Shown here in pieces: positions 24,901 to 27,532 of a stretch of 64,000 bases of DNA. The notes beneath the pieces were generated by a model. It searched no databases. It worked only from the letters and a program-made list of their open reading frames with translations, and had not been told where the DNA came from. The stretch is from Yuukianura sp. NJ FZ-2021 (Eukaryota). Made by a program: the position numbers and the translations under genes. Within the stretch, counting starts at the first letter, position 1, and each line of letters begins with the position of its first letter. Where the stretch lies: positions 11,036,001-11,100,000 of the forward strand of contig CM102286.1 of the NCBI GenBank assembly GCA_046563655.1. The letters run 5' to 3'.

Positions 24901-27532
24901 CATTCAGCTCGAACATAGCCATCGGCCCTTATAACCGGAAAAGTCTCATTTTAAGGATTATGATTTTATAATTTTCACCGTTTTACTCACCTCGCATCAA
25001 AAGATTTACACTTGAAATCCTTTGCAAAAGTGGGTGCGTCCGAAATTGTTCCACCACCGATTGGATTAAGGCTGCGGAGTACTAGGTTTACTCCAGCGGC
25101 AATTGCGATTTTCGAGCTTCCATTACGCAAGTTTTGACATGCAAGGTACAAAGCTGTTCCACTACTCGAACATCCGGTTCTGTAAAATAAAAAACATACG
25201 TTTTGGATTTTATATTTATTTTCGGAATTTTAAAAGGAAAACTTATTAATTTTTGTACTGAAAGAATCTCACTCTGTGCAGTAGTTGGGTCCATGAAGTC
25301 CAAGCAAATTTGTAATGCGTCCAGAGGTTGTGCTGAATGTATTTCCTAAGTAGACTCGAATGTAGTCGTCTGGATCCAGTCCATACTCTGGAAACCAACT
25401 CTTGTATTCGGATTGCCAAATGCCTAAATACACTCCCGTGTCACCTCCGCGCAAGTCGTTTGGATTGATGGCAGAATTTTCGAGACTTTCCCAAATCACT
25501 TCCAAAAGAAGACGTTGCTGGGGATCCAAAAACGGTGCTTCACGCGCACTAATTCCAAAAATTGAGCATCAAATTCATCTATCGGGCATTTTAAAAATCC
25601 CGCCTGAAAATTTTTATGTCGTCGTTTAGGTGGCGTGGTCTATTGGATGGAAATGGTCCAATGGGATTTTGACCACTGATGAGTAATTCCCAAAGTTCAT
25701 CGGCATCATTTGCTCCAGGAAATCTGCAACTCATACCCACCACTGCTATTGCCTTTTCCAAATCTTCTTGATGGTCTTCTTCTTCAGTACCATTTACCGT
25801 AATGTGGCCATTTTTATTTACATACCTATCTGCGCATTGCAGCAGATACGTTTTTGTATGGTCGTTCTGTTTAAAAACAGTTTAAAAAGTGTTATTGACC
25901 TTGTAGTATTTTGAAAATGAATTTCTTTTAAGCTGAAATAGATTAATATTACTACTATATATTTACTTCCATTTGTAGAATTTGTGGGACAATTTCCGTT
26001 TCAAATGTAGCCATCCATTTTTTCCTGATTTCTTCGCAGTCAAATGCCTTGCAAGAAGACTGTGCAATAGAAACATTGTTATCCTCCAAAATGGACGCGT
26101 CTTGATGACACCCTCCATTGCTGGAAAAGCCTTGCATGACTCTATTAATTAACATTCGAAATGAAATTGTAAAAATGATCATTAAGTAAAACATTGCTTC
26201 TAAATTTGTTTGCTTCTAAATTTTTCCATCTATACAAGATCTGTCCTGCCACTTACCGCAGCTTTTCCGAGGTAGACCCCAGTACTTGATGTTTTGAATT
26301 ACACAAAACGGAGGAAAATTTACAGCTCAAAATTTCCACCGCACGTCCTGATAAAAAGGAATGAAGCTTAAAATTACTTTCAGTTATTTTATGTTTGGAC
26401 TATACGGCCTTACTAGGGAAAGTCGTTTGGCTTAATTTCACGAGATGATCAAAATCCTCAAGACTCGGTTTAAATATGACAACCTTCGTCGAAATTTTTA
26501 TACCACAGTGAGAGTTGTGTTCAACAACAGCCGACACCGACGGATATAAAAACAGTTCATCCGAATTCTTGAGCAACTGTAACACCACAACGTGACGTAG
26601 TATACCAAATCATTAAAGAAACTCAAAAAACTAACAAAAGTATTCTGCTTAAAGTGGAATGTTGCTTGGTAATTCAAGTTAGGTAAGTTCAGCGTTATTT
26701 GAGATGAAGGTTCAGTTTAAATTAGGGTTGTTACGTGTAGTAAAGAGACGTGAATAAGACTCACGTAGGTCATGGGGTGAACGTAGACGCATTTAATCCA
26801 ATTGCGCAGACTCCACAGCCAAAATACGCCATGCTCTTTGTTCCCCACTTCGCTTGACTCAAACCCCAGTACCGTATCAAATTCTCTCTTTAGGAGTTTT
26901 CTGAAATTAAAATAAAATGCAGCTCTTTTGTGGTAAGATTATTACGTAACATAATGTTGAATTTGACTCGAAATCATAGACCAAATGTGATACTTACAGC
27001 GACCTAATTTTCTAGATTATCGTAGTTAAGTTTTAGCTTCTTTAAGTATAGGTATTTAAATACAGGTAACAAAATTTCTTTCGCTTTAAACAGCTTTAAA
27101 AGTTCTGACCAAAATCATAATTATAGTATTCATTATTAGAGCAGTTTTTTGTTGCAAGCGGTGTGTGTTTATAAGTTTAATTGTCAGCATAAAGTCAAGG
27201 AAAGAAATTGACTTGACCTATTAGTTCTGTTGTTAAGCATGCGTAACTTTCAAGTATTTTCATTTTTGCTACTGTTACTCATAGAAAAAAAAATGGTTTT
27301 ACCTTATTTCATTTGAAACGTCTTCCGAGATTGCAATGACCAAGGGCTTACTTGTCAACGAATTTCGGATTGATCTAGCGAGCACCAACGCTCCCCAGGC
27401 TTCTTCCTCATTGCTCGCCAACGTTACCCAACACTCGTCTTCTACATGCCAAATAAATAGCAATAAAAAATGACAATATATAAAAATACATAAGTGTATG
27501 CTTTATAGAATTTTTTTGTAACTACCCTTCAT
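18930..27532 (-). CDS. Type I polyketide synthase with an N-terminal glycogenin-like (GT8) domain: GT8-KS-AT-DH*-ER-KR*-ACP; two 1-bp frameshifts in the KS exon
   Basis: KS: IAVVGMSCRFPGA, DPQQRLLLE, TE|TGCSSS, EPHGTGT, KTNIGHSE. AT: GQGSQY, GHSAG, THAFHS. ER: LIHAATGGVG. KR fold: YIITGG, HAAG. ACP: GVDSL. Upstream exons 27526-27532, 27303-27441, 26765-26900, 26414-26576, 26257-26347 and 25967-26141 splice in phase into the KS exon at 25866. Confidence 0.88.

Follow-up and report, generated by a model that had tools for sequence, protein, structure and literature searches.

Glycogenin (GYG1 and GYG2) is a glycosyltransferase of family 8 (GT8) that glucosylates itself and serves as the primer of glycogen. 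Horizontally acquired biosynthetic genes are known in animals, those encoding the polyketide synthases (PKS) of springtails included, but it is seldom possible to see how such genes obtained a 5′ end that functions in a eukaryote. According to the available portions of two reports, Folsomia candida carries 30 clusters of type I PKS, mostly called horizontally transferred (PMC5490193, PMC10764717). The second of these sources, in its accessible text, describes the genes encoding animal fatty acid synthases (FAS) and animal FAS-like PKS (AFPK) as intron-dense throughout, and mollusc PKS genes as having few introns, concentrated N-terminally (Lin et al. 2024; PMC10764717). A glycogenin part is mentioned in neither report: the word “glycogenin” does not occur in PMC5490193 and the word “glycosyltransferase” does not occur in PMC10764717. 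Among the papers listed by our literature search, none was, by title or abstract, on a fusion between glycogenin and a PKS. Here, we analysed a window of 64,000 nucleotides from Yuukianura sp. NJ FZ-2021 (assembly GCA_046563655.1, contig CM102286.1, positions 11,036,001 to 11,100,000), to which all positions below refer. Its minus strand probably carries a single chimeric animal gene with 11 exons, in which a head of six exons derived from glycogenin, now a pseudo-enzyme, was fused once to an intron-poor, highly reducing PKS of bacterial type.

The six 5′ exons measure 7, 139, 136, 163, 91 and 175 nt on the minus strand (cumulative lengths 7, 146, 282, 445, 536 and 711 nt) and end in phases 1, 2, 0, 1, 2 and 0, their joined reading being open over 237 amino acids. 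A preliminary description of the locus had given these lengths and phases, and they are exact to the base. It had also presented the PKS body as nearly intronless with one exon of 4.8 kb, in agreement with the 4805 nt found from 24371 to 19567 and the few further introns. The whole gene comprises 11 coding exons. Five of its introns interrupt the six head exons (711 nt), another separates head and body, and the remaining 6.4 kb hold only four; it follows the pattern of few, N-terminal introns reported in the accessible description of mollusc PKS genes. Ten out of ten introns are of the GT..AG type, with a GC content of 0.21-0.35 against about 0.42 in the exons. The coding sequence of 7107 nt (2368 codons, i.e. 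2368 amino acids) contains no internal stop once two bases supported by the reads are added. In the product, the head of 237 amino acids is followed in frame by ketosynthase (KS), acyltransferase (AT), dehydratase (DH), enoylreductase (ER), ketoreductase (KR) and acyl carrier protein (ACP) domains, with no thioesterase (TE). Read straight through, intron 1 presents a stop and no in-frame ATG ahead of exon 2, and the 7-nt exon is therefore needed for an AUG start. No second copy of the glycogenin-like module was found elsewhere in the 64-kb window.

Contigs from public sequencing runs (X1, X2, X4 and X5) were compared with the window, the nature of X4 (DNA or RNA) being only a guess. The X4 contigs skip exactly positions 26142-26256, 25867-25966, 25180-25272 and 24372-24673, which confirms the junction between exons 5 and 6 and shows that exon 6, where the glycogenin-like part ends, is spliced in frame to the KS exon. 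Two apparent frameshifts in KS exon 7 (25550-25615) correspond to one base too few in each of two homopolymer runs, and the covering contigs display the extra base after 25556 (X1, X2 and X4) and after 25610 (X1, X2 and X5). These frameshifts are most likely assembly errors in an intact gene. Over 24300-27700, the window diverges by about 2%, with many small indels, from a 7121-nt X2 contig and from X5 contigs (of another study, with the label organism B), which points to another haplotype or to a closely related organism with the same gene.

We then compared the positions of the introns with those of one outgroup gene, human GYG1. In its transcript NM_004130.4, exon 1 ends with c.7 and exon 4 starts with c.319, according to the available part of one report (PMC10792954), while the variant c.143+3G>C lies at the donor of intron 2 and leads, by skipping of exon 2, to p.Asp3Glufs*4, according to the accessible text of three others (PMC5735306, PMC4809457, PMC13737462). 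Three introns of the window gene fall on these verified human boundaries, in place and in phase. Intron 1 lies 7 nt past the ATG in phase 1 (human c.7/8), intron 2 lies in phase 2 inside Arg49, aligned with Arg48 of the rabbit and human proteins (c.143/144), and intron 3 lies in phase 0 after Tyr94, aligned with Leu106 (c.318/319). The remaining human exons presumably end at c.481, c.608 and c.828, as in the preliminary description, which gave the human gene the same phases, with the same 7-nt first exon and the same 163-nt fourth exon at equivalent residues. Intron 4, in phase 1 inside Arg149, would fit the first of these ends, as it aligns with Gly161 (the first Gly of DGGDQG in the animal-type glycogenin P0139, equivalent to rabbit Gly161). 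Among the proposed identities, those at c.7, c.143 and c.318 and the shared 7-nt first exon are therefore borne out by the papers; the shared 163-nt fourth exon is verified at its start (c.319), its end being the presumed one; and no match is seen at the fifth and sixth boundaries. The register at intron 3 was also obtained from a transitive alignment through the F. candida protein P0077 and from an alignment of several modules. With about 5 introns per side and 711 places, the chance of three exact matches in place and phase is about 10 x (5/711)^3, i.e. about 3e-6 by our own arithmetic, so that chance is a poor explanation of these coincidences. Moreover, in unnamed relatives, the open reading frame (ORF) is fragmented at the equivalents of residues 49/50 and 97/98 of P0077, which are the places of introns 2 and 3 of the window gene.

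The similarity of the head to glycogenin is distant. Searched against the PDB with E values up to 10, exon 2 gave 19 matches, all of them glycogenin-1 or -2 (E 0.0045-0.026). In a local search, the spliced module scored 45.6 bits with P0138 and 33.4 bits with P0139, two animal-type glycogenins which both pass the Pfam PF01501 model, P0139 scoring 260 bits with rabbit glycogenin. For the best single stretch, the scores were 43.4 bits (P0138) and 31.5 bits (P0139), against 6.1 bits for P0143 and 8.1 bits for P0140. Rescaled by our own arithmetic to a library of 1.84 billion proteins, the E value of the P0138 match would be about 6e-7. The module also shares the N-terminal spacing of P0139, with one residue more than the human protein before the conserved VTL. 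A word-based homologue search with exon 2 gave no match at E values up to 10, and the ESM Atlas returned a weak lead for this exon (score 0.88, with PF01501 on 21% of one cluster). Taken with the introns, these matches support a 5′ module that would derive from an intron-bearing gene encoding an animal-type glycogenin, beginning at glycogenin's own Met1. The likeness to GYG1 and GYG2 extends from Met1 through the C-terminal “KWW” helix, although the module lacks the tail that binds glycogen synthase, is fused to a PKS and lies below detection as GT8 by Pfam. It is also shortened, exon 3 having 136 nt against a verified 175 nt in human (about 13 amino acids less) and exon 5 being about 12 amino acids shorter than its human counterpart, if the latter has 127 nt, as we presume.

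The residues on which catalysis depends in glycogenin are not retained in the window. In the alignments, the D-x-D motif (Asp102-Ala-Asp104) corresponds to His90-Pro91-Met92, and the DGGDQG motif (Asp160 to Gly165) to Pro148, Arg149, Arg150, Ala151, Val152 and Glu153, with Asp160, Asp163 and Gln164 replaced by Pro, Ala and Val. Because the residues of both motifs are replaced, the glycogenin-derived domain is predicted to be a catalytically dead pseudo-enzyme. In human glycogenin, the self-glucosylated residue is Tyr195; the corresponding stretch is not recognisable in the window gene, the alignment there being poor, with gaps and no Tyr opposite Tyr195. In the modules of F. candida and of several unnamed relatives, the middle residue of the lost D-x-D is likewise a Pro. 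Three further ORFs (P0126, P0131 and P0135) are degenerate and glycogenin-like, again with Pro as the middle D-x-D residue, and Pfam detects no GT8 domain in them; P0126 is as close to the window module as any real glycogenin (44 bits). These three may be the heads of other PKS genes.

The same head occurs on PKSs of F. candida. The protein P0077 has an extension of 217 amino acids ahead of its KS domain which aligns with the spliced module of the window, and two other PKSs of this species, P0121 and P0122, share this extension (three proteins including the query, at E values up to 10 among 851 candidates). All 19 PDB matches of the P0077 extension are glycogenins. A profile of the three extensions reaches human glycogenin-1 with an E value of 2.1e-6 from Met1 onwards; its 21 matches consist of 19 glycogenins, one other GT8 protein and one unrelated protein. 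In the library of 1.84 billion proteins, this profile finds 21 proteins at E <=0.001, which include P0138 and P0139, the degenerate P0126, P0131 and P0135, and P0130 (see below). The AlphaFold model of the Folsomia module has a mean predicted local distance difference test (pLDDT) of 73.5, with values above 83 over residues 1-110, and glycogenins are its best Foldseek matches (E 1.5e-12; template modelling score 0.65-0.73), which would fit a GT-A fold, although the model leans on them, as the input alignment contained glycogenins. In addition, P0130, an ORF of 246 amino acids, presents a GT8 stretch with the D-x-D kept that runs directly into the start of a KS domain (Pfam ketoacyl-synt, E 1.1e-5; PF01501, E 6e-4, below the curated cut-off).

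The three Folsomia proteins (P0077, P0121 and P0122; PpsD-like, EryA2-like and Pks15/1-like at NCBI) resemble the window gene in having a degenerate glycogenin-like head followed by KS-AT-DH-ER-KR-ACP. They differ from it in sequence (PKS bodies identical at only about 33-34% of positions, modules at 25-30%), by the catalytic Tyr of KR, kept there and lost in the window, and by intron 1, which is apparently missing there. We built a FastTree phylogeny of the window gene and 122 stored proteins (835 columns, from the end of KS to DH), which holds the best database matches only and no FAS. The window gene groups with P0001-P0003 (support 0.999), and among the 123 sequences it forms one clade with P0001-P0004 and the three Folsomia proteins (support 1.0), eight eukaryote-like sequences in all. 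As the same degenerate module is found on the Folsomia PKSs and these eight PKS bodies form one clade, the fusion is old, with the catalytic residues lost since; it is shared with springtail PKSs and not specific to this host. We also scanned metagenomes for DNA of the relatives: the first scan found no relative, and the second found at least 78 distinct loci among its best 80 stretches (23-32% identity), with none of P0001-P0003 among the matches listed.

The PKS body carries KS, AT, DH, ER, KR and ACP in the order of type I highly reducing PKSs, as seen both with Pfam and from colinearity with mycobacterial mycocerosic acid synthase (MAS). Among named proteins in the database, the large exon 10 is best matched by cyanobacterial type I PKSs, which cover 99% of it at 33-35% identity. 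Higher values (35-54% identity) are reached by four unnamed sequences, and P0001-P0003 start and stop where this exon does. Against solved structures, MAS scores 555 bits in one colinear stretch (residues 7-1611), CurL 387 bits and the DEBS modules 253.8-380 bits, most full modules lying at 320-380 bits, whereas the animal targets reach only 316 bits (pig FAS), 305 bits (human FAS) and 272 and 244 bits (sea-slug AFPK EcPKS2 and EcPKS1). These scores support a body that would be closer to bacterial MAS and modular PKSs than to animal FAS or AFPK, in agreement with its earlier designation as bacterial-like. Compared with the MAS-like and cyanobacterial iterative or modular highly reducing PKSs, the domain order is equal and MAS is the best solved match, but the window gene is eukaryotic, with introns, a head derived from glycogenin and a degenerate KR. 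Animal FAS and AFPK are also type I megasynthases with the same domain logic; they nevertheless score lower and match in two stretches instead of one, and the window gene differs from them by its four introns in 6.4 kb and its absence of TE.

The translations contain TGCSSS, HGTGT, NIGHSE, GHSAGE, HAFHSR and GVDSL. In such enzymes, KS acts through a Cys and two His, AT possesses GHSxG and HAFH, ACP possesses DSL, and KR requires GxGxxG with a catalytic Lys and Tyr. The KR nucleotide site (19567-20200) reads GGLDEIG, while the 10 sequences compared have GGLGGIG or GGLGALG (6), GGCGGIG (3) or GGTGGLG (1). A Met stands where the relatives have the Lys, and a Leu where the Folsomia and bacterial proteins have the Tyr, this last position being a His in P0001, P0002 and P0004. 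With two glycines of its nucleotide site and the catalytic Lys and Tyr gone, all kept in Folsomia, KR is probably inactive, and this PKS probably no longer reduces the beta-keto group. Between DH and ER (about 21000-21800, exon 10), the window gene has no methyltransferase, whereas P0001, P0002 and P0004 carry one.

From these comparisons we propose that the 5′ part of a glycogenin gene, i.e. its start codon, its 7-nt first coding exon and the exons of its catalytic domain with their ancestral introns, would have been joined in frame to a PKS. This fusion would have occurred a single time, before the lineage of the window gene and the F. candida PKS paralogues diverged, and the glycogenin part would have turned into a pseudo-enzyme afterwards. 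The glycogenin locus might have supplied the promoter, the 5′ end and the translation start that enabled the PKS to be expressed; we infer both this donation and a horizontal origin of the PKS. There is about an even chance that the surviving N-terminal half, Rossmann-like and of about 110 residues, has a structural role only, for example as a scaffold or dimer contact. We put forward more tentatively, as a possibility with the odds against it, that the PKS family of springtail type has conserved the dead domain because it needs it: the front end of the host would first have given a promoter, a start codon and exons that can be spliced, and would later have been kept as a structural or targeting domain, forming a dimer or a tether to glycogen particles or pools of UDP-sugars. 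The join can be read here from a glycogenin start, a 7-nt exon and at least three ancestral introns on a body almost free of introns, which would make the locus a dated and testable example of exon capture, and of a megasynthase bearing a pseudo-enzyme domain that was once a housekeeping enzyme. For the annotation of animal PKSs, this N-terminal module is missed by current domain libraries.

A number of results weigh against this fusion. Concerning the join itself, the X4 contigs are unspliced across intron 1 and across the border between exon 2 and intron 2, exons 3 and 4 have no X4 coverage, and introns 1 to 4 are crossed by no spliced read, so that they are placed from splice signals, frame and homology alone. 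In exons 4 to 6, the differences between the window and the contigs comprise seven non-synonymous and two synonymous changes (9 of the 22 listed, 97 more existing), a pattern that fits weak constraint on this half of the head, in a small sample. The dead KR could moreover be the sign of a whole gene in decay. Contigs left unspliced at intron 1 and at the donor of exon 2, uncovered exons 3 and 4 and an apparently relaxed pattern of substitution are also what might be seen if two genes had been wrongly joined, a decaying glycogenin paralogue lying upstream of a PKS with its own start, for which in-frame ATGs are present in exon 6. We regard such a pair of genes as quite improbable, since exon 5, exon 6 and the KS exon are spliced successively and in frame in the contigs, the frame of 237 amino acids is still open across six exons, and the order of module then KS recurs, in uninterrupted ORFs, in the three annotated Folsomia proteins and in P0130.

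Concerning the ancestry of the head, Pfam GT8 (PF01501) was absent, at E values up to 10, from all window exons and read-through stretches, the scan covering these singly and not the spliced protein, and it was not found in the Folsomia module either. Exons 3 to 6, each taken alone, match no glycogenin in the Pfam and PDB searches (for exon 4, no glycogenin in the PDB). As for the introns, the c.481, c.608 and c.828 boundaries were not found in the literature on GYG1, which leaves three of the six human boundaries unverified, and the fifth and sixth boundaries of the window gene miss the presumed human ones. Intron 5, in phase 2, interrupts a codon aligned with Lys209 against a presumed codon 203 (about 6 codons off), and intron 6, in phase 0, is displaced by about 11 codons (estimated by eye against the presumed human sequence), the alignment being poor around both. 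The stretch that places intron 3 (His90 on Asp102, Tyr94 on Leu106) scores -1.2 bits on its own. Protein comparisons also suggest that the relatives may lack intron 1 and have a different fourth intron, as inferred from proteins and not from DNA. That the intron coincidences arose by chance, or from independent gains at proto-splice sites, is nonetheless extremely improbable: this explanation agrees with the two differing boundaries and with the comparison to a single outgroup gene, but it has to account for three verified coincidences and one probable one, against the expectation given above, two of which recur as ORF breaks in relatives. The GT8 tree that had been suggested beforehand (21 sequences and 191 columns, built without the short pieces P0123-P0125, P0132 and P0133 or the second domain of either P0134 or P0137) neither groups the PKS-attached modules nor places them with animal glycogenins, its backbone support being 17-33%. 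The PKS tree groups the fused genes and shows their common descent; composed of best matches and without FAS sequences, it cannot show a bacterial donor. This GT8 tree, together with introns that could be old eukaryotic ones since they were compared with human only, and with the absence of names and taxa for P0001-P0004 and P0123-P0143, would accommodate a GT8-PKS fusion that pre-existed in a non-animal eukaryote with an intron-bearing glycogenin, was acquired by animals as a unit and owes nothing to a host glycogenin. We hold this to be unlikely. The module scores best with animal-type glycogenins, as given above, P0143 and P0140 being fungal-like by eye only; every named carrier of the module is an animal, F. 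candida; and the GC content at the third codon base (GC3) is 0.47 and 0.38 against 0.40-0.54 in neighbouring host genes. At the other extreme, the preliminary description had seen in the head a duplicate of the host's own glycogenin locus placed on an acquired PKS. Its descent from an animal-type glycogenin stands. A recent, host-specific event, in which the glycogenin gene that the animal has today was duplicated onto a PKS acquired shortly before, would explain that the 7-nt first exon and the places of the introns are kept, but it is very unlikely, because the similarity to glycogenins is only distant (E 0.0045-0.026 for exon 2; 31.5-43.4 bits for the module) with the catalytic residues gone, the same losses, usually with a Pro at the D-x-D centre, are found in the Folsomia paralogues, although identity to the window gene is as low as about 33-34% in their PKS bodies, and the composition of the PKS is already host-like. 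An old, single fusion of an animal-type glycogenin head to a bacterial-type PKS therefore remains our preferred explanation.

Table 1. Exons of the glycogenin-PKS gene and other genes of the 64-kb window (positions in the window)
Feature	Position	Strand	Boundary or evidence
Exon 1 (ATG + 4 nt, 7 nt)	27526..27532	-	phase 1 end; one X4 contig unspliced over 27430-27582
Exon 2 (139 nt), glycogenin N-terminal beta-alpha-beta	27303..27441	-	phase 2 end inside Arg49
Exon 3 (136 nt), D-x-D position His-Pro-Met	26765..26900	-	phase 0 end after Tyr94
Exon 4 (163 nt)	26414..26576	-	phase 1 end inside Arg149
Exon 5 (91 nt), degenerate	26257..26347	-	phase 2 end; junction with exon 6 from an X4 contig
Exon 6 (175 nt), end of the glycogenin-derived part, with a KKW helix aligned to the “KWW” helix of glycogenin	25967..26141	-	phase 0 end
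Exon 7, linker and KS N-terminus	25273..25866	-	Pfam ketoacyl-synt
Exon 8, region of the KS active-site Cys	24991..25179	-	Pfam ketoacyl-synt; start from X4 joint 25179/25273, end at a GT donor
Exon 9, KS C-terminal part (HGTGT)	24674..24927	-	Pfam Ketoacyl-synt_C; acceptor from the splice signal; X4 joint 24371/24674 skips 302 nt
Exon 10 (4805 nt), KS end, linker, AT, DH, ER, KR	19567..24371	-	Pfam; MAS match
Exon 11, ACP, then the stop codon (TE absent)	18930..19481	-	Pfam PP-binding, E 4e-12; GT..AG intron 19482-19566
Cytochrome P450	724-2180
Ionotropic glutamate-type receptor, one exon of 717 amino acids	6057-8210
Multicopper oxidase	11745-12431
Sugar/organic-ion transporter	33978-34427
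ELO fatty-acid elongase	43282-43983
Elongation factor 2	53061-55397
fn3-repeat protein	58495-60742

The neighbours of the chimeric gene are ordinary animal genes (Table 1) and show that the window is of animal origin. Elsewhere in the window, positions 38094-38915 present long open frames on both strands with a raised G+C content (0.44) and no Pfam match on either strand.

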